Source of the DNA: Candidatus Poribacteria bacterium | Lineage (GTDB): Bacteria > Poribacteria > WGA-4E > WGA-3G | Direction of reading: 5' to 3' | NCBI GenBank assembly: GCA_965215265.1 | Contig: OZ244048.1 | Span: 1,024,001 to 1,088,000, forward strand | DNA: 64,000 nt | Part shown: in pieces, positions 10,107-63,999 of the stretch | Layout: every line of letters begins with the position of its first letter | Numbering within the stretch: the first letter of the stretch is position 1 | Notes under the pieces: generated by a model | What the model was told of the DNA's origin: nothing | The model's input: only the letters and a program-made list of their open reading frames with translations | Databases searched by the model: none | Translations under genes and position numbers: made by a program

Positions 10107-10275
10107 CACGGCCTAAAGCGGCTCTGACGAGATTTATATAGGTGTTATCAAAGCATACGCCTTTATAGTACTTCAGTAGACAAAAAAGGATTAACACGGC
10201 CTAAAGCGGCTCTGACGAGATTTATATAGATGTTATGAAAGCATACGCCTTTATGGTACTTCAGTAGACAAAAAA
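10098..10275 (+). repeat. Two tandem 88-bp copies containing the palindromic-element right arm
   Basis: aaggattaacacggcctaaagcggctctgacgagattt...cagtagacaaaaa begins at 10098 and 10186; fills the whole gap between kinase and regulator. Confidence 0.9.
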
Positions 10276-11869: not shown

Positions 11870-12040
11870 GAGCAAAACTCACAGCAAGCCGGTTTATGTC
11901 AATTCCAAATTTTTGTAGGACTCCGTTGCAGCACCGGATTTCTAAAAGAAAGATCCATTACATAAATCGACAGATATCCCAAAATAGGTTTTCGTATACT
12001 AGAGCCCTACAACGCCTGATGCTTTGTTAATGACTGTGTA

Positions 12041-12347
12041 CATCTCGCCAGAGGGATTCTCTGTTTTGATTCAATACATCAGGAGGCTCCGACGAGATTT
12101 GTGCTAAGGTTATCAAAGCACCAATTGTTGTTGTGCTCCTGTAGACAAAAGAACGAGATGTACATCGGATTTTACATTGCAGTTGGCAGGTTCGGTATGG
12201 CAGGGTAAGGAATTCTTTGTCTCTCCTTTCAGGAGAGTGGCAGGATAGGTATTCTTTTTCACTCCTGCAAGGAGTGAAAAGATAACCTTTTACCTGCCAC
12301 CCACTGGGACAAGACAGCCTTTGTGGGGTGCCTGTAGACGAAAAAAG
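12041..12347. repeat. Palindromic-element composite with nested TGGCAGG/CCTGCCA hairpin element
   Basis: atctcgccagag...ttttgattca...ctccgacgagattt...gtagacaaaagaacgagat; hairpin insert 12183-12300; ends in gtagacgaaaaaag. Confidence 0.8.
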
Positions 12348-14088: not shown

Positions 14089-14390
14089 ACCATCACCGCT
14101 TATGTATTGTTTAATCGCCACCCATTGGGATTACCTTTTACCTGCCATCTATAGATCGGAGACTCCTTAGGTATAGTCTTTTAAAATTAAAACCTAAAAT
14201 GGCTCCGACGAGATTTGTGCTAAGGTGTTCATTACATCTGTTGTGTTGTGCTCTTGTAGACGAAAGAACGAGATTTGTAAAGTTATTAACATAGCAGCAG
14301 CCTTTAGCGGGCTTCTGTAGACGAAAGAACGAGATTTGTGCGAGGTTTTTGCATTGCCGCAGCCTTTATTGGGCTGCACTATACAAAATA
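14089..14390. repeat. Palindromic element with three tandem ~61-bp right arms
   Basis: accatcaccgcttatgt left arm (cf. 59422), spacer like 59468-59508, ACGAGATTTGT cores at ~14208, 14268 and 14329. Confidence 0.82.
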
Positions 14391-17425: not shown

Positions 17426-17480
17426 TTTTGATTCATAACATCGAAGGATTTGGGTGAGCGGGTGACGAGATTTGTAAAGG
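17426..17480 (+). repeat. Partial palindromic element (spacer + inner right arm)
   Basis: ttttgattcat...aaggatttgggtgagcgggtgacgagatttgt; matches the reverse complement of the 59332-59362 segment. Confidence 0.75.
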
Positions 17481-17515
17481 ATTGAAAATAGCACTGAAAC
17501 CAGATTAAGAAGGAC

Positions 17516-49310: not shown

Positions 49311-50737
49311 ATGAAGAGAAGAATGTACCCCCCCCTCTCTATGTTAAGTGTTTTAGTTCTATTCTTAATCGCTGCGCTTGTTATGCCGTTTACAAACACC
49401 CCTTAACCTGTTCCATTCTATTTTGCATCACGCTTTCGTTACTCATTGCCCCCCTGGCAGTGAGCCAAAATCCGGTAGTGAACATTCCGGATGCGGCGCT
49501 CCTTGCGGAAATAGAGGAGGAACTCTACATCTCCGCGGGGACGGCTGTCACCCAGGCAGATATGCTCCGCTTGACATACCTCGATCTAAGGGAATCAAAC
49601 GTTAGCGATCTGACAGGACTTGAATACGCCACCAACTTGGAAGAGCTGGAGCTCTATGATACGCAAGTAGAGGATATCTCGCCGCTGTCAACCCTCACCA
49701 ACTTGGTATATCTGGATCTCGACAGTACGCAAGTAGAGGATATCTCGCCGCTGTCAACCCTCACTAACTTGAAAAAGCTGTATCTCAGTGATACGCAAGT
49801 AGAGGATATCTCGCATCTGTCAACCCTCATCAGCTTGACAACGCTGTTTCTCACTAATACGCAAGTAGAGGATATCTCGCATCTGTCAACCCTCATCAAA
49901 TTGGATTGGCTGTGGCTCAGGAATACGCAAGTAGAGGATATCTCAGCACTGTCAGGCCTCACCGAATTGGTAAAGCTGAATCTCAGGGATACGCAAGTGT
50001 TGGATATCTCGCCGCTGTCAGGCCTCACTAACTTGCTAGAGCTGTATCTCAGGGGTACGCAAGTAGAGGATATCTCGCCGCTGTCAGGCCTCATCAACTT
50101 GATAGAGCTGTCTCTCAGTGATACGCAAGTAGAGGATATCTCGCCGCTGTCAACCCTCACCAGCTTGATAGGGCTGGATCTCAGTGATACGCCAGTGTCG
50201 GATATCTCGCCGCTGTCAACCCTCACCAACTTGATATCGCTGAATATCAGGAATGCGCGAGTGTCGGATATCTCGGCACTGTCACACCTCACCAAATTGA
50301 CAGTGGTAGGTTTTACGGATTCGCCAGTGTCGGATATCTCAGCACTGTCAACCCTCCCCAACTTGATAGTGTTAGGTCTGGTGAACATTCCGGATGAGAC
50401 GCTCCTTGCGGCAATCAAGGAGAAACTCGACATCACCGATGATCCGGATGTTTTCCAGAGAGATATACTCCGCTTGACAGAGCTTGATTTAGGTGGCTCA
50501 GACGTTAGCGATCTGACCGGACTTGAATACGCCACCAACTTGGAAGAGTTGGATCTCAGTGATACACAAGTAGAGGATATCTCTGCTCTGTCAAGCCTCA
50601 CGAGTTTGCTAGAGCTGTCTCTCTCGGGAACGCCAATAGAGGATGAGGATATCTCGCATCTGTCAGGCCTTATCAACTTGAAAAAGTTGGATCTCAGTGA
50701 TACGGAAGTGTCGGATATCACGCCGCTGTCACAATAA
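49311..50737 (+). pseudogene. Internalin-like leucine-rich repeat protein, frameshifted at the 5' end and truncated at the 3' end
   Basis: 22-aa (66-bp) LRRs L..L.L..TQVEDISPLS.L; two VNIPD caps; RBS-linked ATG 49311 is out of frame with the LRR ORF 49460-50737. Confidence 0.7.
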
Positions 50738-50742
50738 TTAAC

Positions 50743-50918
50743 AACGGTGGGCGACGCTTAAGGCACAAGAGTCACCTCAGTGAGATGTAACCTAACCTAA
50801 CCTAACCTAACCTAACCAGGGGCAGCCACCCTCACATGGCTGCCCCTGGTTTTTTTGGTTTCAGAGAAGCACCGAGGCCGCCCTGCGAGGCAAAACGTGA
50901 AGGTTGCCTTGACAAAAT
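50743..50918 (+). repeat. Direct repeat copy 1 (gene tail + TAACC run + terminator + -35 box)
   Basis: Aligns by eye with 52383-52549. Confidence 0.85.
50816..50856 (+). terminator. Intrinsic terminator
   Basis: ccaggggcagcca/tggctgcccctgg 13-bp stem + T-tract. Confidence 0.88.
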
Positions 50919-50971: not shown

Positions 50972-52333
50972 ATGAGGCAAACTACGGCACCAGAGACATC
51001 TAAACAAACACAAAGCAAACGGAAACTCTGGGACCCTTTCTTCAAAGAGTTCCTCGCGCTGCTATTCTCTGGGCTGGGTGCCTCTATAGAGACAGAGATA
51101 GAAGTGAACCGGTTGCCGCAGCGTATAGATGCACTCGCTCTCCTCGAAAGTGCCGCAGCCCGGGCGAGAGTGCGTGCAAATCCGCTGCTCTCTTACTTAC
51201 GCACGTATAATCTGTTCGAGTTCAAAGGGCAAAACGACCCGTTGAATGGTTCGGAGTATCACCGGATTTCTATGCGTGCGTGCGGCTATCTCGCAGCGCA
51301 TAAGGTGCCAGACACGGAAGTTACCTTGACGATAGTGTCTTCTCGGAAGCCGCGGGCACTGCTTACCCACCCGCCTTTTGGGGTATCCTGGGTGCAGCTC
51401 GCCCCTGGACATTATCGGCACCGGGAAGATCTGCCGGTGCATCTATTGGTTTGTAATGAAGTGGAGTTGGTTGAGCCGAATTATTGGTTGCTGCTGTTTG
51501 CGTCGTCGAGGAAACAGTTTCGTGCGTTCCTGCGGCGTGTGATAACAGAAGAGAATACGTTATATTTTGACTCCGCGTTGTATTTGCAGCCGGAAGTCAC
51601 GGAGGAGGTTTGTGAAATGGAAGGACGTCAAGATTTGTTTCAGAGTCGTCTTCGCGAAGTTGCGACGACTTTAGGTCCGAAGCTGCTGTCAGCACTGACA
51701 TCGGAGGAGCGTGCGGACATGCTGTCCCGCTTGAGCCCTCAAGAGCGGGCGGATCTGCTCGCACGGCTGCCCGCTGAAGCCCGCGCAGACATGTTAGCAA
51801 GGTTATCTGCGGCAGAACGGGCTGATATGTTGGCGAGTTTACCCGCCGCAGAACGCGCCGATATGTTGGCGAGTTTACCCGCCGCAGAACGCGCCGATAT
51901 GTTGGCGAGTTTACCCGCCGCAGAACGCGCCGATATGTTGGCGAGTCTACCCGCCGCAGAACGCGCCGATATGTTGGCGAGTCTACCCGCCGCAGAACGC
52001 GCCGATATGTTGGCGAGTCTACCCGCCGCAGAACGGGCTGATATGTTGGCGAGTTTACCCGCCGCAGAACGGGCTGATATGTTGGCGAGTTTACCCGCCG
52101 CAGAACGGGCTGATATGTTGGCGAGTCTACCCGCCGCAGAACGCGCCGATATGTTGGCACGCCTGAGTCCCGATGAGCGCGTCAAAGGACTCACTCCCGA
52201 TGAGCGGTTAGCCGGACTTCGCCCGGCGGAGATTCGGAACTTATCTGCGGCGATGGTTCGGGAGTTGCCCTCGGAGGTGCGGGCAGAGCTCGTCCGGCAG
52301 TTGGTGGCAGCTGACAACCACACTGACATGTAG
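50972..52333 (+). CDS. Rpn/PD-(D/E)XK nuclease-like protein with C-terminal tandem repeats
   Basis: WDPFFKE, E.EV....QRID, NLFEFK pattern (D...ExK); ERLAGL-type helical tail. Confidence 0.65.
   Translation: MRQTTAPETSKQTQSKRKLWDPFFKEFLALLFSGLGASIETEIEVNRLPQRIDALALLESAAARARVRANPLLSYLRTYNLFEFKGQNDPLNGSEYHRISMRACGYLAAHKVPDTEVTLTIVSSRKPRALLTHPPFGVSWVQLAPGHYRHREDLPVHLLVCNEVELVEPNYWLLLFASSRKQFRAFLRRVITEENTLYFDSALYLQPEVTEEVCEMEGRQDLFQSRLREVATTLGPKLLSALTSEERADMLSRLSPQERADLLARLPAEARADMLARLSAAERADMLASLPAAERADMLASLPAAERADMLASLPAAERADMLASLPAAERADMLASLPAAERADMLASLPAAERADMLASLPAAERADMLASLPAAERADMLASLPAAERADMLARLSPDERVKGLTPDERLAGLRPAEIRNLSAAMVRELPSEVRAELVRQLVAADNHTDM
51701..52168 (+). repeat. 36-bp coding tandem repeat (AAERADMLASLP)
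   Basis: 10 near-identical units from 51809 plus 3 degenerate units upstream. Confidence 0.95.
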
Positions 52334-52382: not shown

Positions 52383-52549
52383 AACGCTGGGCGACGCTTA
52401 AGGCGCAAGAGTAAACTCAGTGAGATGTAAACTAACCTAACCTAATCAGGGGCAGCCACCCTCACATGGCTGCCCCTGGTTTTTTTTGCTTTCAGAGAAG
52501 CACCGAGGCCGCCTTGAGAAGCGAAATCTGGAGACTGCCTTGACAAAAT
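52383..52549 (+). repeat. Direct repeat copy 2
   Basis: tgggcgacgcttaagg...caggggcagccaccctcacatggctgcccctgg...gccttgacaaaat; includes a terminator at ~52447-52487. Confidence 0.85.
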
Positions 52550-53173: not shown

Positions 53174-56100
53174 TTAGTGGTGACGTGCTGCCGTAGACGA
53201 AAAAAGTTCCCGACGTAGGAATTGTGCCGTATGCGAATCGTGCACGGTTGAAACCTCCTCCGGTGTACCGCTCGCGACAAGGTAACCGCCCCCTTTACTG
53301 CCCTCGGGTCCCAAGTCAAGAATCCAATCTGCCGATTTGATAACGTCCATGTTATGTTCGACGGCAATAATGGTGTTGCCTGCATCAACCAGCCGGTTGA
53401 GCACCTTGAGCAATTTCTGCACGTCGTCAAAATGCAGTCCTGTCGTGGGTTCATCCATGATATAGAGTGTCTCCGCGGCGTGTCTGCGCGAGAGCTCTTT
53501 GGCGAGTTTGATTCGCTGTGCTTCTCCGCACGAGAGCGTGGGTGCGGATTGTCCCAACTGGATATACTCCAAACCAACGTCCGCTAGCGTCTGGAGTGGA
53601 TGCTGAATCTTCTTAATATCTCTGAAGAGATGAAGTGCCTCTTGCACCGTCAATTGGAGAACCTCGGCGATGTTTTTTCCTTTGTAGCGTACGGAGAGCG
53701 TTTCAGCATTGTAACCGGTACTACCGCATGTCTCGCAGGGCACCCACACATCTGGCAAGAAGTGCATCTCAATCCGGAGGTAGCGGTGCCCATCACAGTC
53801 AGGACACTGACCATAGTTCAGATTGAAACTGAACCGACTTATATTAAACCCTCGTACTTTCGCATCCGGTAACGTTGCGAACAATTCGCGAATGTGTGTA
53901 AATACCTCGGTGTAAGTTGCTGGATTTGAGCGCGGGGTCTCGCCAATCGGTTTCCCATCCACGTTGATAAGTCGTCGAATGTTGCTTGCTCCCTTGATGC
54001 GTTGATAATTCGGCTTTTCGTCTATCTCCGTACCATCATCGCGTTTGTTTTGATGGCTCGTGTGTAAATCTCGTCGGAGCCCTTCGATATTTAGATTCAT
54101 TACATCTGATGTAATGTGCTGCGGTATACAAGAAAGTGCTGGGCGAAGCGTGCCATCGACAAGCGAACTTTTCCCAGACCCGGAAACGCCTGTCACGCAA
54201 ATTAACGTGCCAAGCGGCATCTTTACATCAATATCTTTCAGGTTGTTGGTTCGGGCACCTAACAATTCCAACCATTTTCCGTTGCCTTTCCGTCGGACCG
54301 ACGGCACCGGAATCTGCTTCGCATTGGAGAGATAGGCATGTGTTAAAGAGGTTCCTACCTTTTTTGCTCCGTTTTCAACGGTATCTGCTTTTTCGTATAT
54401 GTCAGCCCTATCAACGGTTGATGTTTTTTCGTATATTTCCGTACCATCATCGCTGATGTTTTGATGGCTTGTGTGTAAATCTCGTTCTTTCGTATCTTTC
54501 AGCCCATCAACGTCTGATGTTTTGCTATCCGTTGTACAAATCTCGCCAGAGCCATTCGAGTTTGAATCTAAACATCGGGACCCTCCGACGAGATTTGTAG
54601 TGGGTTGAACACTACAACTGCCTTTGTTGTGCAGCGATATACTAAAAGAGGTTTCTTGACTAAATGCGTGTGGTGTACCTATTGCAACAATTTCGCCGCC
54701 ATGTTCGCCTGCTCCAGGTCCGAAATCAATAATATGGTCTGCGGCTAAGATGGTGTTCCTATCGTGTTCAACAATTAGAACGTTGTTTCCGATGTCACGG
54801 AGGGACTTCATGGCCGAAATAAGCCGCTCCTGGTCTCGTGGATGCAGGCCGATGCTGGGTTCATCAAGGATGTAAGTAACGCCTGTCAACCCACTCCCGA
54901 GTTGGCTGGCGAGCCGGATACGCCGGATTTCACCTCCGGAAAGCGTGGGCGCGGGCCGATCTAACTCCAAATAGCCGAGGCCTATATCCTCAAGAAACTG
55001 GAGCCGCCTCACGGTTTGAGAGAGCAGTTCTGCCTCAAACTCAGGTGACGTGTAGCCGTGGAGGGTTGTATGTGTTGCTCTGGATGTTGCGGGACCCGTT
55101 AGCGGCTGACCTTGTTTTTCGTATATTTCCGTAGCATCACCGCTGAGGTTTTCTCTGTTTAGATTCATATTAATCTGCCTAATACGCCGGGTGAAGAAAG
55201 AAATAATCTCCGTAATTGGTAAGGCCATCAATTCAGCAATGGTTTTGTCAGAGAACATGACAACACTTGGAAAGGGTTGGAGTCGAGTTCCTTCGCAAGC
55301 AGAACAAACCTTGTGGCTACCGGCAATAGGAGAGTGTCCGCGCCCATCGCATTCAGTGCATGCGCCGATTTTGTTGTTAAAAGAGAAGTGCCGAGGCGTG
55401 AGTTGTGGAAAATTTTCACCGCACGATGTACACATCGCGTGCTCACTAAAGAAATATCGCATGGGTGGTTTGCCACGACTTGTAGAACGATTTCTTTCTT
55501 GCACTTTTTGGAAACAGATGAACCCTTCGCTTTGCAGGAGTGCCAATTCGACCGCTTCGGCGAGCCTGCTTTTTTCCTCATCCACAAGTTCCAGCCTGTC
55601 AATAACGAGGAAGATTTCGTGGTGTCTCCGTTTGTCAAGTTTCGGTGCTTCATCTAGGCGATGCATTTTGCCATTAATCAGGGCACGTACGAATCCTGCC
55701 TTTTGCAGCCGCCGGAATGCATCGATGAAATTCTCACTCCCTTTTAAGAGGCGTTCGATACGCGTGCCGCCGGCGAAATGTGTCATCGGAGCAAGCACAT
55801 CAATCCGCTGTTGATGCATGCTTTCAAAGACTGAGGTTGCAATCTGTTCTGCGGTCTGTGGTTGTACCACTTCGAGGCAATTCGGGCAATGTGGTACGCC
55901 CCAGCGTGCGTAAAGGGATCGGAGCCGATCGTGAATGTCGGTGATTGTCGCGACGGTAGAGCGTGGATTTTGGCTGGGGCTATCGTGTGAGATGGCAATA
56001 GCTGGGGAGAGCCCGTCAATGCTTTTAACCTTCGGTTTCTCCATCTGCCCGATGAATTGCCTAGCGTACGTATTGAGGGTTTCAATATAGCGACGTTGCC

Positions 56101-59100
56101 CTTCGGCATACAATGTATCCAACGCAAGCGATGTTTTGCCGGAGCCGCTGACCCCAGTAAAAGCAGTGAGTGTAAGGTGCGGGATGTCAATGTCAATCTG
56201 TTTGAGATTATTTTGTTCGGCCCCGCGTACGGTAATCATATTTTCGTCTTTTTCGTCTATCTCGGTACCGTCAATGTTTATGTTTTGATTCGGTGGACTG
56301 CCCGATTTTTCAAATTCACCACGGAGTGCTTGTCCGGTGTAAGAGTCTGGAACCTGGGCGAGTTGTTCAGGCGTACCAACAGCGACGATGGTTCCGCCGT
56401 TGGCACCTCCTTCGGGTCCCAAGTCTAGAAGATAATCAGCTGAATTAATGACTTCAAGATTGTGTTCAACAACGAGCACCGTATTGCCTGCATCAACGAG
56501 CCGGTGGAGGATGCGCAACAACTTATTGACATCATCAAAGTGCAACCCGGTGGTCGGTTCATCCAGCAGATAGAATGTTTTACCGGTGCTGCGCTTAGAA
56601 AGCTCACGGGCGAGTTTGATGCGTTGGGCTTCACCGCCGGAAAGTGTGGGTGCCGGCTGTCCCAATTTTATGTAATCTAATCCAACATCGTGGAGGAGTT
56701 GTAACGTTCTGGCAATTTTAGGAATATCAGCGAAATGGGCGAGCGCAACATCAACATCCATTTCGAGGACATCGGCGATACTTTTCTGTTTGTATTTTAC
56801 GGTGAGCGTCTCGCTATTGTATCGTCTACCTTCACATACGTCACATGCAACCCAGACATCAGCAAGTACCCCCATGTCAACCTGCTTGGCACCATTGCCT
56901 TTACATACCTCACACCTGCCTCCCGGTACGTTAAAGCTAAACCGCCCTGGTTTGTATCCACGCCATTTAGATTCCGGCAGTCCGGCGTAAAACGAACGGA
57001 TTGCATCAAACACTTTGGTGTAAGTCGCGGGATTTGAGCGGGGTGTCCGCCCGATGGGTGCCATGTCAATATTGATGATTTTGTCAATCACATCTGATAT
57101 CGGAACAGTCTTTCCGTCAATGATACCTTGGATGTCACGGTAGGCCCCCGGCACCGTCTTGGCGCGCATCAGGTCGCGGGCGAGGGCGTTATAGACAATA
57201 TCATGGACCAGCGAACTCTTTCCGGAGCCGCTGACACCTGTCACACAGCAGAATGTCCCAATAGGTATCTTCGGACTGATCGATTTCAGATTGTTTTGAC
57301 AAGCATCTCGGATATGCACCCACCGCGTCCCTGTAGTTCTGCGGGATTCGTTTTTGACAATCTGTTTATCCCCGCGCAGGTATTGTGCTGTGAGCGAATC
57401 ACTCTCTTTAAGGATTTGTGCGGGCGTTCCCATGGCTGTGATTTGTCCGCCTTGAACACCGGCCTTCGGACCGAAATCAACTATCCAATCGGCGATTAAC
57501 ATGGTGGCTTCGTCGTGTTCAACGACAATGACTGTGTTGCCCTGGTCGCGGAGTTTGCTAAGTGTTGTGAGCAGTCCTGCGTGGTCACGTGGGTGTAAAC
57601 CGATGCTAGGTTCATCAAGAACATAGATGACATCGCGTAACCCTGCGCCGACTTGGCTGGCAAGCCGGATACGTTGGGCCTCTCCGCCAGAAAGCGTGGG
57701 TGCGGAACGTGATAAAGTGAGATAGCCTAACCCGACATCCATCAGGAATTTGAGACGCCCACGAATCTCTTTTAGCAATTCGGCTGCGATAAATGCCTCA
57801 CGCTCAGGAAGTTGAAGCGTTTCAAAGAAAGGTGCGGCTTCTTCAATGGACATTTGTAGGACATCCGTAATTGCTTTGCCGTTTAGGGTTATCGTGCTAA
57901 CTCTAGGATTGAGTCTGCTACCGTTACAAGCTCGACACGGCATTTTCGCAAAAAAGTCGGGAAGGGATCCTTCTTGGATCGATGCATATTGTTCCTCATG
58001 CGCTGGGATGACACCTTGAAACCTGCCGCGATACCTTCGCCGTTTATGGCTTCCTTGTGAAGGTCTCGAAAAAGATAAGACAGTGTCACCCGTACCGTAA
58101 AGTATCGCGTGCTGTTGCTCAGGACTGAGTTCTTTCCAAGTGGTATTAATATTAAATTTGAGATGCTTGGCGAGCGTACGAAGGATGGCCAGATGCTGGG
58201 CATCTAATTTTCCCCAGAGCGTTATGGCTCCTTGTGGAATGGAGAGTGTTTCATCGGGGATAATTAAGGCTGGGGAGATGCCCATCAATGTCCCCAATCC
58301 GGTGCATTCAGGGCACATTCCTTGGGGCGTATTGAATGAGAAATGGCGTGGTTCTGGAATTTCATAACTGGCCTGACACTGGGCACAGGCGTATGCTGTA
58401 CTGAATAACTCATCTCTACCTCTTAAGTCGCTTTTTTCGTATATTTCCGTACCATCATCGCTGATGTTTTGCTGATTCGTGTGTAAATCTCGTCGCCCGC
58501 CCACCCAAATCCTCTCTCTGTTTTGATTCACATTTTCGTCTTTAGGGGGCATGATGTGAACAATGAGGTTTCCATCACCTATGTTCAAAGCGGTTTCAAC
58601 GGCTTCAGCGACACGACTCTCAATTGCAGAGGTAGTTTCTCTGTTTGCATGTTTGAGGATAAGCCTATCAACAACGATGTCAATATCGTGCCGTTGATTC
58701 GGGTTCAGGCGAAGTTCAGTTCCAATTTCATGCATCTCGCCGTCAATGCGAGCTCTCACAAATCCTGCTTTTCGAGCATCATCAAGTTCTTTGTTATGGG
58801 TACCGCGGCGTGCGCGAATGATAGGTGCCAAGATGAGGAGCCGGGTCCGGGCAGGAAAGTTGAGGATGTGTGCAGCAATATCTGCGCCGGTTTGTGAGCC
58901 GACAGGCTCACCACATTCCGGGCAGTGGAATTTTCCAACACGCGCAAATAAAACACGCAGGTAATCGTAAATTTCTGTCACGGTGGCAACCGTGGAACGC
59001 GGATTATGTGCTGTTGAACCTTGGTCAATAGCAATGGATGGAGCCAAGCCGATAATTTTGTCAACCTCTGGTTTAGCGAGCTGCCCTAAAAATTGTCGAG

Positions 59101-59380
59101 CATACGCTGATAGCGATTCTATGTACCGGCGCTGTCCTTCGGCATAAATGGTATCAATAGCTAAGGAAGATTTGCCAGAACCGCTAACCCCTGTAAAGAC
59201 AATCAACTTCCCTTTTGGAAGTTCAATATCAATATTTTGTAGATTGTGCTCTCGCGCCCCCTGTATTTTTATATATTTCCGTTTTTCGTATATTTCCGTA
59301 CCATCATCGCTGATGTTTTGATGGCTCGTGTGTAAATCTCGTCGCCCGCCCACCCAAATCCTCTCTCTGTTTTGATTCAT
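53174..59380 (-). CDS. uvrA: Excinuclease ABC subunit A, tandem double-length form with in-frame repeat insertions
   Basis: Four GVSGSGK Walker A motifs, LSGGE signatures, DEP Walker B, zinc fingers; two full UvrA units. Confidence 0.95.
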   Translation of the reverse strand: MNQNRERIWVGGRRDLHTSHQNISDDGTEIYEKRKYIKIQGAREHNLQNIDIELPKGKLIVFTGVSGSGKSSLAIDTIYAEGQRRYIESLSAYARQFLGQLAKPEVDKIIGLAPSIAIDQGSTAHNPRSTVATVTEIYDYLRVLFARVGKFHCPECGEPVGSQTGADIAAHILNFPARTRLLILAPIIRARRGTHNKELDDARKAGFVRARIDGEMHEIGTELRLNPNQRHDIDIVVDRLILKHANRETTSAIESRVAEAVETALNIGDGNLIVHIMPPKDENVNQNRERIWVGGRRDLHTNQQNISDDGTEIYEKSDLRGRDELFSTAYACAQCQASYEIPEPRHFSFNTPQGMCPECTGLGTLMGISPALIIPDETLSIPQGAITLWGKLDAQHLAILRTLAKHLKFNINTTWKELSPEQQHAILYGTGDTVLSFSRPSQGSHKRRRYRGRFQGVIPAHEEQYASIQEGSLPDFFAKMPCRACNGSRLNPRVSTITLNGKAITDVLQMSIEEAAPFFETLQLPEREAFIAAELLKEIRGRLKFLMDVGLGYLTLSRSAPTLSGGEAQRIRLASQVGAGLRDVIYVLDEPSIGLHPRDHAGLLTTLSKLRDQGNTVIVVEHDEATMLIADWIVDFGPKAGVQGGQITAMGTPAQILKESDSLTAQYLRGDKQIVKNESRRTTGTRWVHIRDACQNNLKSISPKIPIGTFCCVTGVSGSGKSSLVHDIVYNALARDLMRAKTVPGAYRDIQGIIDGKTVPISDVIDKIINIDMAPIGRTPRSNPATYTKVFDAIRSFYAGLPESKWRGYKPGRFSFNVPGGRCEVCKGNGAKQVDMGVLADVWVACDVCEGRRYNSETLTVKYKQKSIADVLEMDVDVALAHFADIPKIARTLQLLHDVGLDYIKLGQPAPTLSGGEAQRIKLARELSKRSTGKTFYLLDEPTTGLHFDDVNKLLRILHRLVDAGNTVLVVEHNLEVINSADYLLDLGPEGGANGGTIVAVGTPEQLAQVPDSYTGQALRGEFEKSGSPPNQNINIDGTEIDEKDENMITVRGAEQNNLKQIDIDIPHLTLTAFTGVSGSGKTSLALDTLYAEGQRRYIETLNTYARQFIGQMEKPKVKSIDGLSPAIAISHDSPSQNPRSTVATITDIHDRLRSLYARWGVPHCPNCLEVVQPQTAEQIATSVFESMHQQRIDVLAPMTHFAGGTRIERLLKGSENFIDAFRRLQKAGFVRALINGKMHRLDEAPKLDKRRHHEIFLVIDRLELVDEEKSRLAEAVELALLQSEGFICFQKVQERNRSTSRGKPPMRYFFSEHAMCTSCGENFPQLTPRHFSFNNKIGACTECDGRGHSPIAGSHKVCSACEGTRLQPFPSVVMFSDKTIAELMALPITEIISFFTRRIRQINMNLNRENLSGDATEIYEKQGQPLTGPATSRATHTTLHGYTSPEFEAELLSQTVRRLQFLEDIGLGYLELDRPAPTLSGGEIRRIRLASQLGSGLTGVTYILDEPSIGLHPRDQERLISAMKSLRDIGNNVLIVEHDRNTILAADHIIDFGPGAGEHGGEIVAIGTPHAFSQETSFSISLHNKGSCSVQPTTNLVGGSRCLDSNSNGSGEICTTDSKTSDVDGLKDTKERDLHTSHQNISDDGTEIYEKTSTVDRADIYEKADTVENGAKKVGTSLTHAYLSNAKQIPVPSVRRKGNGKWLELLGARTNNLKDIDVKMPLGTLICVTGVSGSGKSSLVDGTLRPALSCIPQHITSDVMNLNIEGLRRDLHTSHQNKRDDGTEIDEKPNYQRIKGASNIRRLINVDGKPIGETPRSNPATYTEVFTHIRELFATLPDAKVRGFNISRFSFNLNYGQCPDCDGHRYLRIEMHFLPDVWVPCETCGSTGYNAETLSVRYKGKNIAEVLQLTVQEALHLFRDIKKIQHPLQTLADVGLEYIQLGQSAPTLSCGEAQRIKLAKELSRRHAAETLYIMDEPTTGLHFDDVQKLLKVLNRLVDAGNTIIAVEHNMDVIKSADWILDLGPEGSKGGGYLVASGTPEEVSTVHDSHTAQFLRRELFSSTAARHH
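54015..54100 (-). repeat. Palindromic-element left arm, in frame in uvrA
   Basis: Encodes MNLNIEGLRRDLHTSHQNKRDDGTEIDEK. Confidence 0.9.
54388..54649. repeat. Full palindromic element plus extra arms, in frame in uvrA
   Basis: acaaatctcgccagag...ctccgacgagatttgt inner inverted repeat; full unit ~54486-54649; extra left arm 54425-54485. Confidence 0.88.
55115..55170 (-). repeat. Internally deleted element copy in uvrA
   Basis: Encodes NMNLNRENLSGDATEIYEK. Confidence 0.78.
56250..56291 (-). repeat. Internally deleted element copy in the linker between the two UvrA units
   Basis: Encodes NQNINIDGTEIDEK. Confidence 0.75.
58432..58530 (-). repeat. Element left arm + half spacer, in frame in uvrA
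   Basis: 3 mismatches in ~97 bp versus 59283-59379; NQNRERIWVGGRRDLHTNQQNISDDGTEIYEK. Confidence 0.93.
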
Positions 59381-59602
59381 ATTTTTATATATCTCCGTAC
59401 CATCTTTTTGTATATCTTGGTACCATCACCGCTTATGTCTTGTTTCATCGTGTGTAAATCTCGTCGGAGGTTAGCTAGGTAATGTCTTTAAAATCGTAGA
59501 CATAAACGGCTCCGACGAGATTTTCACAGGTTTTTATATAGCAGCAGCCTTTATTGGGCTCCTGTAGACAAAAGACCTTTATTGGGCTCCTGTATATGAA
59601 AA
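59268..59602. repeat. Element cluster spanning the uvrA 5' end, intergenic gap and era 3' end
   Basis: Arm 59283-59380, full element ~59404-59574, duplicated arm end 59577-59602. Confidence 0.9.
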
Positions 59603-60511
59603 ATCTTTGAGTTTACGCGGATCTTTTCGCCAATCGGCTTTGACAGTGACATAAAGTTGCAAAAAAACATGGGTATCCAAAAATTTTTCAATATCGGACC
59701 GGGCGAGTTCCCCGACACGTTTAATCACCCTGCCGGCTTTTCCGATGATAATTTGCTTTTGCGTCTGTCGTTCGACATAGACAATAGCCCGGATATACAC
59801 AGTTGCATTCTCGCGCCTGGTGCATTGCTCAACAACAACAGCTGTCGCGTATGGAACTTCTCGCTGCGTGAGCAGCATAATTTTTTCTCGTACGGTCTCA
59901 GCGATGAAAAAACGTTCTGGTAAATCGCTGAGGTGTTCTTCTGGAAAATAGCGTGGCCCCGGCGGTAGTTGAATATGTACGTGCTCAAGGAGGCGAGGGA
60001 TACCGTCACCCGTACGCGCGGAAATGGGTATCATTTCCTTGAATGCAAATTTCTTGGCGTAACTTGCTATGATCGGGAGCAACGTCTCTTTTGAAATTAA
60101 ATCGACTTTGTTCATGGCCAAAATTGCAGGGTGCTTCGCGCTGCGTAGACGTGCTAACATCTGCTCTTCATCGGCAGCTTCTGGTCGGGCAACATCAATT
60201 ACGCAAAGGACTACATCGGCACCTGCTAAAGCACTATAAGCGGTTTTTACCATTTCACTTTGCAACCGGTAAGTTGGATGCATCAGCCCGGGGGTATCAA
60301 CAAAAATGATTTGGTAGGATTCTGTTGTAACAATTCCGCGTATCTGGTTCCGAGTTGTCTGCGGTTTTGGGGTGACAATCGCCAGTTTCTGCCCTAATAG
60401 CGCATTGAGGAGTGTTGATTTACCGACATTAGGTGCCCCGATGATGCTGACATAGCCGGATCTGAATTCTTTCGTATATTTAAGCACGTTACCACCTGAT
60501 GTTTTTAGCAT
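59579..60511 (-). CDS. era: GTPase Era
   Basis: GAPNVGKS, PQTTR, DTPG, NKVD, EVPY, IIGK.G KH domain. Confidence 0.97.
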   Translation of the reverse strand: MLKTSGGNVLKYTKEFRSGYVSIIGAPNVGKSTLLNALLGQKLAIVTPKPQTTRNQIRGIVTTESYQIIFVDTPGLMHPTYRLQSEMVKTAYSALAGADVVLCVIDVARPEAADEEQMLARLRSAKHPAILAMNKVDLISKETLLPIIASYAKKFAFKEMIPISARTGDGIPRLLEHVHIQLPPGPRYFPEEHLSDLPERFFIAETVREKIMLLTQREVPYATAVVVEQCTRRENATVYIRAIVYVERQTQKQIIIGKAGRVIKRVGELARSDIEKFLDTHVFLQLYVTVKADWRKDPRKLKDFSYTGAQ

Positions 60512-60550
60512 TGCATTAATCGCCGCTTTATGCTGCGCTATGCCTAAGAT

Positions 60551-60810
60551 ATCTCCGACGATCTATAGATTGGCAGGATAAGGTAATCTTTGTCTCTCCT
60601 TTCAGGAGAGACAAGAATACCGAACCTGCCAAGATTTACACATGAGCCCTCAAAAGCATAGACGTGGACGGTACGGAGATATATAAAAAATTGTTGGGCT
60701 CCTGTAAGTGATTGAAGAATCATAACCTAGAACGGCTCAGACGAGATTTACACACGAGCTATCATTACATAGACGTTGATGGTACGGAGATATACGAAAA
60801 GACGAAAAAA
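60551..60810 (+). repeat. Two reversed-orientation left arms, the first interrupted by a nested hairpin element
   Basis: ctccgacg[...]agatttacaca...ggtacggagatatataaaaaa and gacgagatttacacacgagc...ggtacggagatatacgaaaa. Confidence 0.85.
60571..60631. mobile_element. Putative miniature inverted-repeat element
   Basis: TGGCAGG/CCTGCCA ends, internal ttgtctctcc-tttca-ggagagacaa hairpin, AGAT on both flanks. Confidence 0.5.
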
Positions 60811-60812
60811 CA

Positions 60813-62765
60813 TTAGGGCCAAAATTGGTAAACCGTCGTATTTGCCAAAACGCTGCAAATGCTCCATAAACTTCCGAAGATGTAGTCTCCAAGCGCGAGG
60901 CCCAAAAATAAGGGGACTGCGCGTCTATAGGCTTTGAGCCCACCATGGTGTAAGACCAATGCTTTGGCTACCCAGGCGACAAAGAGGCAGCTCCAGAGAT
61001 TGTACATACCCCAACTGTTCGCCATGGCGTACCCGAGGGGATGCAGTGGCCACCATAAAAACCGGGTGCGTAGCAACATAAGTCCCATTGCAAATGCACT
61101 GCCTCCGCCGATAAATGTAAGGGCCGGAATATCGGTCCCTTGTGGATAATTCAGCCAATTTTCAAGTTGACGGTAGACACCTCTGCCAAAGCCGAGTGCC
61201 CACGGGCCGTAGTAACCTGTCTCGGCACCGTGGCGGTAGTAATTCTCTAACAACAGCCAGAAGACAACAAGCGCACCAATTCCGGTAGCGATGAGAATTG
61301 CTACGGCTATGTGCCCTGGATGTATCTGTCTCCGTTCTGCGATTTTGAATGCCTCTAATTCTTGCGGCATCGGGTGTGCACGGTAGGCACGGTTAAAGAA
61401 CATGTACAGCGAAAATACTCCCTTGGTACTCGTGTTGAACCGCTGCGTTCCAAATGCCGTCACCAATAAACTGTGCGGGTCTACGCGATGTAAATCGTGA
61501 ACTAAGAACCCTAGTTCGGCACGGAGCCGCGCAATCATGATTGCAAGCAGGAAGTAAATTCCGAAAAAGAGCGGCACCACCCACAGTGCCATGCCTGCTT
61601 TGTAAGAGAAAGCTGTCAAAAAGAGGCTCCCGCCCACGATGCCAAGGCACGCAAAATGATACGGCATCGGTTCACGTCTATCTCCGTTTTTTCTTCTAAA
61701 TCTGTCTCGGATACCCGCAATTACGTAGTTGAAATGTGCTCTGCCTATCCACGCCGCACTCCCCAGCAGGGCAAGGTACGCGCCGAAGCTCTGTGCATCT
61801 GCATAAGGAAAACCGGGCAGCTGCCGCACCCCCAAGACACTACCTGCCATGAGTTCAAACTTATATAACCAATAGAATACCCAACATGAAAAAAGCAGAT
61901 CTAGAGGTATCAGGAAACTAATCCCAATTGCAAATGGGTAAAATGAGAGGCGGACACCACCCATGGCGTTCCAAGGCCGTCCCGTAAAAAATTGATGTAT
62001 ATTTTGTCGTTTAACCGGCACATACGGCACCGCAGGATATATTGAATTGAGTAGATTCATCACGCTAATACCAGCTGCAATACCAAAACCTACCCACATC
62101 AATTTATTTTTGAAAAAACTCGCCCCCGTATCTGTCATCGCCAGCGGCAATTGGATAATTGGGTATGTCAGCCGCTCACGCTCTGTCCACTGGATTCTGA
62201 GTAAGGTGTTGATGCATAACATGACAAACATCAACACGAAGATGAAAACTGTCCACCAAACGATAGGTGTTGCCCATGCAATCAGATGGTCCCTGCGGTA
62301 AAAACTGGACTGCCCCTCATAATACCCAGATAAGACTCGGGTATCTTGGACGGTGAGCCATGTAGGTAATTCTTTCCAAAATAGTTGCTGCCATTCGTTC
62401 TCCGGTGTGGCAAACTGAAACGGATGCCCTAAGAGTGTGACGAGAATTTCCATCATATCGTGCGAACAGAGAGAAGAGACAATGCACAACATGACATAGA
62501 TAGTGAGTAACTCGGCACCGGATAGCCACAACTTTTTTGATAATTTGCCGAGTACCGCCCGTAGTACGAGCAACCAAAACAAGATAAAAATAACGTTAGA
62601 GAGCGGATGAATTAGCGTCGGATGTGTATATCGCACTACCTCCAACTGAATTATCCAGTAAACGTTAACAGGCATCAGGAGGAGTGCGATGAAAAGTGCC
62701 TTCGGTGTTAAGCCTGATTCATAAGTGCTCCTATTTTGGGTGGATCCATCCGCGTTCCTTTTCAA
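60813..62765 (-). CDS. Polytopic membrane protein (DUF6785/DUF6784-like, putative transporter)
   Basis: Many TM segments; W...ERL.YP..QLP, WWPLHPLGY motifs; start uncertain. Confidence 0.7.
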   Translation of the reverse strand: MKRNADGSTQNRSTYESGLTPKALFIALLLMPVNVYWIIQLEVVRYTHPTLIHPLSNVIFILFWLLVLRAVLGKLSKKLWLSGAELLTIYVMLCIVSSLCSHDMMEILVTLLGHPFQFATPENEWQQLFWKELPTWLTVQDTRVLSGYYEGQSSFYRRDHLIAWATPIVWWTVFIFVLMFVMLCINTLLRIQWTERERLTYPIIQLPLAMTDTGASFFKNKLMWVGFGIAAGISVMNLLNSIYPAVPYVPVKRQNIHQFFTGRPWNAMGGVRLSFYPFAIGISFLIPLDLLFSCWVFYWLYKFELMAGSVLGVRQLPGFPYADAQSFGAYLALLGSAAWIGRAHFNYVIAGIRDRFRRKNGDRREPMPYHFACLGIVGGSLFLTAFSYKAGMALWVVPLFFGIYFLLAIMIARLRAELGFLVHDLHRVDPHSLLVTAFGTQRFNTSTKGVFSLYMFFNRAYRAHPMPQELEAFKIAERRQIHPGHIAVAILIATGIGALVVFWLLLENYYRHGAETGYYGPWALGFGRGVYRQLENWLNYPQGTDIPALTFIGGGSAFAMGLMLLRTRFLWWPLHPLGYAMANSWGMYNLWSCLFVAWVAKALVLHHGGLKAYRRAVPLFLGLALGDYIFGSLWSICSVLANTTVYQFWP

Positions 62766-63999
62766 TCAAAACCTCCGTTTTGAAAGGTGCACACCGCTGT
62801 TGATAATCCCGTAATGTTTCGATCGCTGTTTCTCCATGAAGCAGACTGGGTTGGTACTTTTTCTGGGGTGTTTCTGTTAAAATTGGAATCAATTCAATGA
62901 ATCTCAGCTGCCGATTAGCATAAGTAGCTTTGGGTATAACGATTTGAGCGTACTGTTTAGAATACGTATCATATATAAAATCAGCGAGACTGTAGATAAT
63001 CGGTTTGCCCTGATAAAGTTCGATGCCACCGAAGTGATGAAGTTGTTGACAGACAACCATATCGGCACCTGTATCAATGAGGGCGTGCGCAAATAGCTGC
63101 TGACGGCGAATCGCCTGTTCTCTGGCCTGATTTCTAAAGTCGCTTTTCTCAACTAGAGCGTCAGCGTGTTGTGCTTGTTGGTGCCGTTGCCGTTCTGGCG
63201 GATTCACTTGACGCCCCGTCCCACCCCAGTGTAGCAACACGATGACAAGTTTCGCTTTGTCCCGTACGTCCGTGACGGCTTCCATCATTTCGCTATAAAC
63301 CGCATCCGCAAGTAGTTCTGCCTTGTGCTGCGAGAATTCGTTTTGTCGATAATAGGCGAGTACGGCAACTTTTTGTATACTGGAACCCATCAACGCCTGA
63401 TGTGTTTCGTCTATCTCGGTACCATCATCGCGTTTGTTTTGATGACTCGTGTGTCCAGCTCGTCGGAGGTTTCTGATGTTTTGATTCATACTCCGGCGCA
63501 CCGTTTCAATATTGGATGGCACGCGTGGGACCGGTATCCATGCGGGCATCCGTGCCTCTGTGGTAGTTGTACCGGCACCAACCGGCTTGACATTATACCT
63601 TTTAAGTTCTGTGAGTGTATCTGCTAACGCTTCAAAACCGAAGTCCATACTGTGCGGGGTAGCTAAGGAGACGGCATCAAAACCTGCGTTTGCGAGTGCC
63701 CTTGCGAGTCCCAATGATGCGCGGAAGGTGTGTTCATGTCCGTACCGTGGCTCTCCTCGTTCTGAAATGCTTGTGTTGAGAAAGGCAACGGCGATATCTG
63801 CAGACTGAATCGACTCAGCGGTGCCTTTAAAAAAGATACCTGCTCCATTTATTTCTATCAGTGGTGTGAGACGGTTCCCGACAGTAATATCGCCAACAGC
63901 GAGGACGGTGAGTGTCTCAGCACCGGTGGTGCTTTGAGGCTGAAGTGCAACGTACGGCTGCTTTGGTTTCGCGTTCAAACCATCTAAGGAACCAGAGAT
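62731..63999 (-). CDS. CapA/PGA_cap metallophosphatase-like protein (5' end outside the window)
   Basis: LAVGDI, GFDAVSLA..H..DFG, VLLHWG, IIYSL; frame open to the window edge. Confidence 0.82.
   Translation of the reverse strand: MSGSLDGLNAKPKQPYVALQPQSTTGAETLTVLAVGDITVGNRLTPLIEINGAGIFFKGTAESIQSADIAVAFLNTSISERGEPRYGHEHTFRASLGLARALANAGFDAVSLATPHSMDFGFEALADTLTELKRYNVKPVGAGTTTTEARMPAWIPVPRVPSNIETVRRSMNQNIRNLRRAGHTSHQNKRDDGTEIDETHQALMGSSIQKVAVLAYYRQNEFSQHKAELLADAVYSEMMEAVTDVRDKAKLVIVLLHWGGTGRQVNPPERQRHQQAQHADALVEKSDFRNQAREQAIRRQQLFAHALIDTGADMVVCQQLHHFGGIELYQGKPIIYSLADFIYDTYSKQYAQIVIPKATYANRQLRFIELIPILTETPQKKYQPSLLHGETAIETLRDYQQRCAPFKTEVLIEKERGWIHPK
63404..63489 (-). repeat. Element left arm, in frame in the capA-like gene
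   Basis: Encodes MNQNIRNLRRAGHTSHQNKRDDGTEIDE. Confidence 0.88.

Follow-up and report, generated by a model that had tools for sequence, protein, structure and literature searches.

Copies of a 67-nt repeat arm lie both between genes and, in frame, inside two unrelated genes of the window (the whole stretch of 64,000 nt analysed here), one encoding a fused double UvrA (UvrA2) and the other a CapA-like protein. These copies very probably represent non-autonomous, species-specific dispersed palindromic repeats that persist in frame as tolerated protein loops. In the course of events that we propose, multiplication of a non-autonomous family would have given rise to ~ 780 arms at ~ 390 loci, nearly all in gene spacers, and insertions into coding DNA would almost always have been lost. 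The surviving coding inserts would be those that measure a multiple of three bases, have no stop in the frame of the host, usually specify a charged and hydrophilic peptide, and sit in linkers or loops whose length differs among orthologs. Such inserts would be transcribed and translated within the host protein, adding 7 to ~ 80 residues, most likely as floppy peptide loops, to judge from the sequence. UvrA2, a paralog of the canonical UvrA under somewhat weaker constraint, may have gathered several insertions, one of which would have replaced its start codon. The first-pass annotation had suggested a lineage-specific selfish element that donates peptide loops. The predominance of intergenic copies (81%), the empty sites in orthologs, purifying selection on the hosts and the restricted distribution all support this suggestion.

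A profile search recovered 776 copies of the arm at E ≤ 1e-3 in the 4.83-Mb genome (G000), grouped into 387 clusters; the family is thus dispersed in many copies in one genome, as expected of the class of Rickettsia palindromic elements (RPEs). The count of coding versus intergenic copies, advised in the first-pass annotation, placed 627 arms (81%) between genes, 83 across a gene end and 66 within called genes, whereas 80% of randomly placed 67-nt segments fell within genes. The gene calls were crude (longest ORFs scored by codon usage; 85% of the genome, ~ 4.1 Mb, coding), and many of the "inside" arms close to N-termini probably lie upstream of the true start. Arms separated from each gene end by 150 nt or more ("deep" arms) numbered 23, in 15 called genes. 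Some arms stood alone and others in tandem, and others again formed inverted pairs, head to head, with a 30–40-nt loop between them. The inverted pair was the commonest multi-arm unit: 72 clusters consisted of exactly one pair, and the 166 inverted neighbours had a median loop of 37 nt. Such pairs form terminal inverted repeats with sharp outer ends, as in MITEs, and their inner heads folded strongly in three units (z of −5.8, −3.8 and −2.6). The conserved head of the arm contains GACG/CGTC, and the 12-mer core CCGACGAGATTT was present in 214 copies against ~ 0.6 expected, far beyond chance. Moreover, 63 clusters were squeezed between genes on the same strand; these spacers are candidate places where an out-of-frame copy may have split a gene. 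The intergenic copies in the window were:

10120..10274, + strand: tandem arms with an 88-nt period (arm profile search)
11989..12181, unstranded: inverted arm pair and partial arm (arm profile search, fold)
14089..14388, unstranded: three tandem arms clustered with a partial arm (arm profile search)
59383..59602, unstranded: cluster directly upstream of UvrA2, with a partial arm, an inverted arm pair whose inner heads pair strongly, and a partial arm (fold z −5.8)
60628..60800, + strand: tandem arms between an Era-like GTPase gene and the next gene (E 2e-9 and 9e-20)

These agree with the intergenic positions read earlier by eye at 10.1, 12.0, 14.1, 59.4 and 60.6 kb; the one proposed at 17.4 kb gave a weak partial match (17464-17492, E 0.13).

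The first coding host in the window was UvrA2, in which the following features were located:

53174..59380, − strand: fused double UvrA (UvrA2), an uninterrupted ORF of 2068 aa with nine arms or fragments at six sites
59283..59380, − strand: Site 1, loop module and arm forming the N-terminus, aa 1-33 (arm 59283-59344, E 1e-16)
58427..58534, − strand: Site 2, 36-codon insert of loop module and arm, aa 283-318 (arm 58434-58495)
56251..56289, − strand: Site 3, partial arm (E 7e-6) in the linker that connects both UvrA units, aa ~ 1031-1044
55117..55152, − strand: Site 4, partial arm, aa ~ 1405-1423 (E 3e-5; ortholog alignment, k-mer scan)
54390..54652, − strand: Site 5, composite insert in the second unit, in the linker that separates its two ATPase domains (arms and ortholog gap)
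54015..54109, − strand: Site 6, loop and full arm, aa ~ 1758-1788 (arm 54015-54081, E 4e-17)

The arm profile matched all seven coding sites that had been noted, six in uvrA and one in capA (54015-54081, 54390-54426, 55117-55152, 56251-56289, 58434-58495, 59283-59344 and 63405-63469), and the uvrA ORF is uninterrupted, as had been stated. It also revealed arms at 54427-54485, 54488-54553 and 54582-54647, which form a composite insert with 54390, and a partial arm at 63370-63404. Both halves of UvrA2 matched solved UvrA chains with E from 0 to 1e-245, and a UvrA2 match was found in 31/31 relatives' genomes searched, the best matches including orthologs with open frames of 1836-2034 aa.

Site 1 provides the only available start codon of UvrA2, either ATG at 59380 or GTG at codon 10. 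The orthologs begin 5–6 residues ahead of the conserved IxIxGAREHNL block, where G000 has no ATG, GTG or TTG. Site 2 has no counterpart in the same-genus and other orthologs, and its best genomic match was an intergenic copy, 97% identical. In the solved Bacillus-type UvrA 2R6F, its junction corresponds to residues 257-259, and the alignment breaks at 277/322 of the query against 257/259 of the chain. The linker that harbours Site 3 is of variable length across 12 orthologs. At Site 4, the orthologs hold a non-homologous stretch of equal length. Site 5 is composed of one antisense arm (54582-54647, + strand), a loop, two sense arms (54488-54553 and 54427-54485, − strand) and a partial arm (54390-54426, − strand), and it folds as a stem-loop (z −3.8). 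In the alignment to 3PIH, position 526 of the query is followed here by position 623, at chain 555/554. The large loop reported at this position is real, with a length of ~ 103 aa in place of the ~ 110 aa first given, and 79 of these residues have no counterpart in the ortholog of the same genus. In the first UvrA unit, the corresponding linker is free of inserts, which upholds the internal control that the double UvrA had been said to offer. In the last ATPase domain, Site 6 occupies the loop that follows the Walker A helix, where the orthologs are shorter and non-homologous (query 707-748 versus chain 637-649 in the PDB alignment). Since the inserts coincide with breaks in the alignments to solved chains and with length variation among orthologs, they appear to occupy permissive linkers and loops, which may lie on the protein surface. 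The arms in UvrA2 were 83–98% identical to their best matches, mostly distant intergenic copies, and are recent, partly independent arrivals. We must also note that a k-mer scan for coding segments derived from the repeat, in which AT-rich words produced many false positives, served as a lead only.

Under a uniform distribution, ~ 0.035 arms would be expected in UvrA2 (6.2 kb out of a coding total of 4.1 Mb). Nine pieces far exceed this number, so permissive loops plus relaxed constraint may not suffice as an explanation. A tentative and rather doubtful extension is that uvrA-type genes, in various bacterial phyla, do not merely tolerate hairpin-forming selfish repeats but preferentially attract or accumulate them. 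It draws on the nine pieces, on two unrelated repeat families in the same UvrA2 loop, and on a published survey. In a sister genus (g2), a typical GTAG REP family, unrelated to the arms, lies in frame at the same UvrA2 loop; repeat families without relation to each other have thereby converged on one UvrA loop in sister genera. The survey of Di Nocera et al. 2013 (PMC3733652) reports that GTAG- and CGTC-tagged REPs occur in frame within genes, as singles, dimers and clusters encoding 20–82 residues, among others in both Opitutus terrae uvrA genes, in Thioalkalivibrio uvrA, in uvrB and in other repair genes. Our case strengthens the unexplained recurrence of repeats in uvrA noted there. If the link holds, repeats might change excision repair to the benefit of their own spread or survival, by mutator or recombination hitchhiking or by blunted recognition of their own cruciform DNA. 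Alternatively, transcription or replication of uvrA might expose DNA favoured by the copying mechanism.

The second coding host in the window was the CapA-like gene:

62731..63978, − strand: CapA-like (PGA_cap) gene (Pfam PF09587, E 5e-45), with a stop-free frame extending past the window end
63370..63510, − strand: in-frame insert of a loop, a full arm (63405-63469) and a partial arm (63370-63404)

Four other genera lack the insert loop of CapA. In the ortholog of the same genus, an unrelated loop occupies this site, with no arm match at E ≤ 10. UvrA and CapA share the peptide HTSHQNKRDDGTEIDE, as first observed by eye. Hosts identified by Pfam elsewhere in the genome include GcvP, a fused GlyQS, RpoC, a sulfotransferase, a subtilase and an FtsJ-like methyltransferase; CapA, GcvP, GlyQS, RpoC and others hold one or two arms each. 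In RpoC, an arm at aa ~ 1190-1222 substitutes for a stretch of equal length. Such equal-length replacement, at this site and at UvrA2 aa ~ 1405-1423, means that simple insertion is no explanation there. Inserts of this kind are a practical problem in metagenome-assembled genomes, where they inflate protein annotations and alignments and cause confusion.

The earlier statement that the arm is always read in the same frame has to be weakened to a preference. Among ten arms and fragments of the UvrA2 and CapA ORFs (E ≤ 1e-3 in a search of the window only, with the frames of 54390, 55117 and 56251 taken from their peptides), eight used one sense frame, one another sense frame and one an antisense frame. 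Genome-wide, the same preference was seen in 16 of the 23 deep arms, with all three sense and two antisense frames in use. The consensus peptide of the preferred frame is hydrophilic (GRAVY −0.98), whereas that of the commonest stop-free antisense frame has a GRAVY of +0.41 and three Cys. The preferred frame was open in 32% of 528 intergenic arms, versus 62% for one antisense frame. The bias in frame and orientation is thus greater than stop-freeness alone predicts, and may in part reflect selection on the peptide or an insertion mechanism with a preferred direction. It could accordingly be argued that the hydrophilic ...DGTEIYEK-type peptide is a functional module, such as a binding, targeting or regulatory tag, selectively recruited into UvrA2, CapA, GlyQS and others. 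Besides the frame bias, a 16-residue stretch identical in UvrA2 and CapA and the 26 occurrences of the peptide motif in 20 called genes speak for such exaptation. We nevertheless regard it as unlikely. The same DNA is 81% intergenic, and other genes read it in other frames, as unrelated peptides. Much of the bias is explained by subfamily A, the source of most coding copies, which is intrinsically open in the preferred frame (49/71 gap-free copies stop-free, against 12/80 in subfamily B). Moreover, the inserts occupy length-variable loops and are missing from close relatives with otherwise conserved proteins, and partial arms and equal-length replacements are retained as well. Tolerated loops, presumably neutral for the host, remain the preferred reading.

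Alignment to orthologs, which had been proposed for finding empty sites, revealed them in UvrA2, GlyQS, GcvP, one RpoC site and, in four other genera, CapA. The same-genus UvrA2 ortholog, with 1538 of 1901 aligned residues identical (81%), lacks every insert, as do 10 other orthologs. The GlyQS and GcvP inserts are missing in 5/5 relatives, and one of the two RpoC sites is empty in 2/2 relatives aligned. In-frame copies in unrelated conserved genes with empty sites in orthologs are a further trait of RPE-like elements. UvrA2 might instead be a decaying, dispensable paralog, with the inserts marking early pseudogenisation. A canonical, arm-free UvrA is indeed encoded elsewhere in the genome, with a dN/dS of 0.068, half the 0.138 of UvrA2 against its same-genus ortholog, and the last ABC signature of UvrA2 is LSCGE instead of LSGGE. 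However, the 2068-codon frame is fully open, and a dN/dS of 0.14 marks the host gene as being under purifying selection. The translation shows all four Walker A motifs intact, the second unit retains the columns invariant across 12 orthologs, and LSCGE is also found in the insert-free same-genus ortholog. The fused gene is conserved in every one of the 31 genomes searched, and the essential genes rpoC and glyQS hold the same kind of insert. Decay is a very unlikely explanation. The other hosts measured are likewise under purifying selection, with dN/dS of 0.109 for GlyQS, 0.102 for GcvP and 0.063 for RpoC (the last at a dS of 2.3, near saturation).

We infer that the inserts are translated and retained. 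Their absence from the mature product, through removal from mRNA, ribosome skipping (programmed bypass) or excision from the protein, would fit the inverted arm heads, which are able to form stable stem-loops. Yet all copies within well-supported genes are in frame and stop-free, neither of which is needed for removal or bypass, and coding copies are depleted more than 25-fold relative to coding density (23 deep of 776 versus 85% coding), which implies that most insertions are harmful. At 7-80 aa, the inserts are also far below intein size, and Rfam gave no intron or other family match at gathering score over the whole window, apart from one meaningless sub-threshold miRNA match. On these grounds, an intein, intron or bypass element was rejected as the identity of the repeat, and loss from the product is very improbable.

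The junctions were reproduced by contigs of four public runs from four studies, which enter the repeats from unique flanks at identical positions; one of these runs comes from a variant strain (19 differences over 3.9 kb). The contig joints listed have sides of 20–45 nt and lie between repeats or other similar stretches. That an assembler misplaced repeats inside genes has a negligible probability, for although short-read contigs end at most repeat copies, the partial arms 55117 and 56251 are each contained in single contigs of X1, X5 and X7 (56251 also of X8), the CapA insert is fully bridged in X1 and X7, and no insert-lacking joint with long flanks occurs in the public-run contigs.

In-frame palindromic repeats are already known from Rickettsia and other bacteria, whereas the arm family itself is new. 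The first-pass annotation had not recognised a described family; this stands insofar as our literature search on Poribacteria repeats found no paper on this arm family and Rfam had no match, but the phenomenon as such is in print (PMC3733652, PMC10969869). As the MITE review (PMC10969869) relates from Ogata et al. 2000 and 2002, RPEs are 100–170-nt units found in frame in housekeeping genes, and nearly half of those in three families are intragenic. The parallel with RPEs drawn earlier is apt as to behaviour, with a preferred rather than invariant frame. As in the RPEs described there, the units measure 100–170 nt, unrelated housekeeping genes carry a minority of copies in frame and stay intact, a hydrophilic peptide recurs, orthologs lack the insertions, and no transposase is known. 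The differences, with RPEs taken by description only, are the phylum, the build of the arms as a mosaic of several subfamilies and not one fixed palindrome, the share of arms deep in genes (~ 3% versus nearly half intragenic in that review), and the nine pieces in one gene. The Rickettsia-style passage from selfish DNA to protein loop is hereby extended to a sponge-associated lineage, in an unusually dense case that combines nine pieces in one open 2068-codon gene, a repeat-supplied start codon, and inserts in rpoC, glyQS and gcvP.

Several known element classes were considered and rejected. The arms share with the GTAG- and CGTC-tagged REPs of PMC3733652 the occurrence of small palindromic repeats in frame, in particular in uvrA, and the GACG/CGTC in the head. 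That survey also describes N-terminal REP copies as often ambiguous and CGTC-type repeats as having no dedicated transposase. However, REPs are there 20–40-nt stem-loops with an 8–9-bp stem, whereas the arms measure 67 nt and show no conserved hairpin within a single arm: no consensus hairpin emerged from RNAalifold for a sample of 300 of the 456 distinct full-length arms, and the mean fold energy of 150 single arms was −11.1 versus −9.7 after shuffling. A RAYT-mobilised REP/BIME would require a 20–40-nt imperfect hairpin with terminal GTAG, and RAYT (Y1 transposase, PF01797) had 0 matches in G000, with positive controls in 6/14 genomes. A CGTC-tagged REP was rejected for want of the short hairpin (8–9-bp stem, 4–5-nt loop, short tail). 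The arms resemble MITEs, foldback elements and BIME-like mosaics in being non-autonomous, with inverted ends and mosaic clusters that fill the spacers of operon genes. A classical MITE (DDE transposase) was nevertheless rejected, since among 35 isolated units at most one had any 4-nt match at any offset and none of ≥ 5 nt, giving no target-site duplication. No parent insertion sequence with the same ends was found either; the two candidates with outward-facing arms 400–4000 nt apart enclose no called gene. The same-genus genome G001 has 34 PF01797 matches in at least three IS200/IS605-type units. These were rejected as a demonstrated source of the arms, as they gave only 3 short blastn matches and no remnants in G000, and their sole arm-like piece was an internal head motif in one unit.

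The sequence comparisons suggest that the arm family is confined to G000, with distant cousins in one other genus, and is lineage-specific. The 12-mer CCGACGAGATTT occurred in 214 copies in G000, 67 in G004 (another genus) and 0-6 in the 29 other relatives, and the repeats of G001 and G004 match the arm over its first ~ 39 nt only. An 18-mer of the arm head had 10 single matches in ~ 186,000 species-representative genomes, against ~ 17 expected by chance; we judged these to be chance, and none was titled Rickettsia. The nearly repeat-free genome of the same genus makes this pair a clean comparative system.

The genome containing the window (a single 4.83-Mb contig with 48% G+C, of which the window is bases 1,024,001-1,088,000) carries a dispersed 67-nt repeat unit, hereafter the arm. 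In its consensus, a highly conserved head with CCGACGAGATTT and a tail that terminates in ATAC(A/G)AAAA enclose a variable middle. The first profile, made from six window copies, returned 644 genome-wide matches, and an arm-only profile (E up to 1e-3) returned 776 arms, shared equally between the strands. The arms were grouped into 387 clusters: 175 consisted of one arm alone, 72 of exactly one head-to-head inverted pair, and the remainder were mosaics with tandem arms spaced by 2-3 nt. The loop between inverted neighbours had a median length of 37 nt (n = 166), and the inner heads of inverted pairs folded strongly (z of -5.8, -3.8 and -2.6); no conserved hairpin was found within a single arm. 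The 549 near-complete arms fell into subfamilies A (260) and B (202), with the others in three minor groups. At the sites where the first-pass annotation had recognized one common repeat, the repeat finder agreed (families D4-D7, D9-D12, D14, D15 and D17).

Its description of the repeat as lineage-specific also held, and most copies proved to be intergenic. By our own, crude gene caller (3641 genes, 85% coding), 627 of the 776 arms were intergenic, 83 lay across a gene end and 66 within a called gene, where 80% would be expected for random placements. Many of the arms "inside" genes occupy the first 30-80 codons of longest-ORF calls; for these, the true start probably lies downstream of the arm. 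The 12-mer head occurred 214 times in this genome and 0-6 times in most relatives (six in the same-genus genome G001 and 0-5 in 28 others); G004, from another genus of the family, had 67. The repeats of G001 and G004 share only the first ~39 nt with the arm. An 18-mer searched in a species-representative collection gave 10 single matches, which is roughly the chance level.

Two ORFs of the window and one gene outside it contain arms and are considered in detail below.

53174..59380, minus strand: UvrA2, 2068 codons, open throughout
62731..63978: CapA-like ORF running past the window end, with a Pfam PGA_cap match
G000:C1:1092379-1098129, outside the window: rpoC, encoding the 1916-aa beta-prime subunit

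Solved UvrA chains match both halves of UvrA2 end to end (E from 0 to 1e-245), so the protein consists of two complete UvrA units fused head to tail. The fused UvrA is conserved in the order: it was present in each of the 31 genomes searched (open frames of 1836-2034 aa for the best matches), next to a canonical UvrA of some 960-1010 aa. A search limited to the window found nine arms or fragments in UvrA2, at six sites.

Site 1, aa 1-33: N-terminus
Site 2, aa 283-318: alignment break at residues 257-259 of 2R6F
Site 3, aa ~1031-1044: linker joining the two units
Site 4, aa ~1405-1423: equal-length swap for a non-homologous stretch
Site 5, aa 1577-1655: composite insert with an antisense arm, one loop, two arms in sense orientation and a fragment
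Site 6, aa ~1758-1788: in the 637-649 loop of 3PIH

The alignments of UvrA2 to solved UvrA chains break at the inserts. Site 5 corresponds to the 555/554 junction of 3PIH, between the two ATPase domains. Site 1 no longer has the ancestral start region; since no ATG, GTG or TTG separates the arm from the conserved N-terminal block, translation of UvrA2 would have to start inside the repeat. We also note that UvrA2 differs from the same-genus ortholog in its final ~9 codons and its stop (window 53174-53200), which by eye look like an inverted arm's outer end, with no profile match at E up to 10. Elsewhere in the window, a partial arm (60470-60505) overlaps the first codons of an Era-like GTPase ORF (59579..60511), for which reason the annotated start of this ORF may be repeat-borne or placed too far upstream.

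An assembly artefact is contradicted by public sequencing runs. Eight, none of them catalogued as RNA, contain at least half of the words sampled from the stretch under study, and in the four compared, from four studies, contigs pass from unique flanks into the repeats at identical positions. Single contigs span the partial arm at 56251 in all four runs and that at 55117 in X1, X5 and X7, and two runs have contigs that cross the CapA insert. One run was a variant strain with 19 differences over 3.9 kb. No joint removing an insert, with long flanks, was found among the contigs of the four runs.

The first-pass annotation had proposed a search for empty sites in orthologs. In an alignment of 12 UvrA2 orthologs, every insert was absent from the same-genus ortholog (81% identity, 1901 residues) and from the others; for most of the six sites, the orthologs also vary in length among themselves. 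The inserts of GlyQS and GcvP were missing in 5/5 relatives. The CapA loop is missing in four other genera, and the same-genus ortholog has an unrelated loop without an arm match. RpoC carries, in frame, a partial arm and a different repeat module in two copies (a 17-mer with 22 genomic occurrences, translated TPEEGFGWAG); one repeat-derived segment was missing in both aligned relatives, and another swaps for an equal-length stretch. The repeat inserts are predicted to be translated as part of the host proteins.

The dN/dS values between this genome and the same-genus genome were 0.138 for UvrA2, 0.109 for GlyQS, 0.102 for GcvP, 0.063 for RpoC (dS of 2.3, near saturation) and 0.068 for canonical UvrA, which has no arm inside. 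Thus, UvrA2 is under constraint, albeit weaker than that on its canonical paralog.

Genome-wide, 23 arms lie deep within genes (≥ 150 nt from either gene end), spread over 15 genes. The hosts identified with Pfam were UvrA2, RpoC, CapA, GcvP (insert between the two halves), a fused GlyQS (insert in the alpha/beta linker), a sulfotransferase, a subtilase with FG-GAP repeats (two copies), an FtsJ-like methyltransferase and a Wzi-like protein; one more host protein had no Pfam family. The proposal that the arm is always read in one frame applies to 16 of the 23 deep arms, which share a sense frame, but not to the other seven (four in the second frame, one in the third and two antisense). Freedom from stops alone does not predict this bias. 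Of 528 intergenic arms, 32% are open in the preferred frame and 62% in one of the antisense frames. Coding copies derive mainly from subfamily A, in which 49 of 71 gap-free copies are open in the preferred frame, versus 12 of 80 in subfamily B. The preferred-frame peptide is charged and hydrophilic (GRAVY -0.98), and that of the open antisense frame is Cys-rich and more hydrophobic (GRAVY +0.41). The openness of subfamily A together with the hydrophilic peptide accounts for much of the bias.

The best matches of the UvrA2 copies are 83-98% identical and are mostly distant intergenic arms, which makes several independent, recent arrivals likely; some within-gene copying is likely as well, and one arm pair inside UvrA2 is 98% identical. 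Across the genome, the closest relative of an arm lies no more than 20 kb away in 18% of cases, as against 2.4% of random pairs; the spread of the arm is local in part.

With respect to known systems, the arm does not behave as a classical MITE: no target-site duplication was seen at 35 isolated units, and no gene enclosed by outward-facing arms was found in the genome. It also differs from REP/RAYT systems in having neither a single-arm hairpin nor a Y1 transposase in the genome. The IS200/IS605 transposase domain PF01797 has 34 matches in G001, distributed over at least three units of ~1.9 kb, and arms are almost absent there; the genome containing the window (G000) has about 780 arms and zero PF01797 transposases, and no remnants of the G001 units were found in it. 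The element acts like Rickettsia palindromic elements, which are described as inserting in frame into many genes (review PMC10969869), in that the arm lies in frame inside several genes. The first-pass observation is confirmed and its RPE-like, in-frame reading is supported. An Rfam search gave no match, and a literature search found no published account of repeats in this lineage.

In the sister genus, the UvrA2 orthologs bear their own inserts. In G002 (locus L003, 2251-2427), the site-2 loop is occupied by consecutive in-frame units that bear a short GC hairpin and end in GTAG. The GTAG-type REP pattern had 1793, 330 and 109 matches in the sister-genus genomes G002, G007 and G010, and zero in G000 and G001. 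As the same loop holds the arm in G000 and sister-genus-specific GTAG REPs in G002, it has been entered by two unrelated repeat families in two genera. On visual inspection, another sister-genus-specific UvrA2 insert (L003:3733-3810, L002:4000-4080) resembles a variant of the GTAG-type REP. Intragenic GTAG- and CGTC-tagged REPs were catalogued by Di Nocera et al. 2013 (PMC3733652), who place many of them in repair genes, namely both uvrA of Opitutus terrae, uvrA of Thioalkalivibrio and uvrB of R. conorii, and speculate about mutator effects. The crowding of arms in UvrA2, together with the convergence of another repeat family on it, leaves a low probability that uvrA does more than tolerate repeats.

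The window holds further repeats. A second dispersed family lies at 12198-12276 and 60571-60610; the genome has 37 copies of its hairpin word, TCTCCTTTCAGGAGAG, and a k-mer scan suggests that this family or related ones are in frame within several genes. A 66-nt tandem repeat of the type seen in leucine-rich-repeat coding sequence occupies 49541-50731. The ORF at 50972-52333 (plus strand) repeats a 12-residue unit about ten times in tandem, with a 36-nt period at 51670-52245. It is flanked on each side by one copy of a duplicated ~120-nt segment (50798-50918 and 52428-52549), in which TAACC-type pentamer repeats precede a GC-rich hairpin and a run of T.
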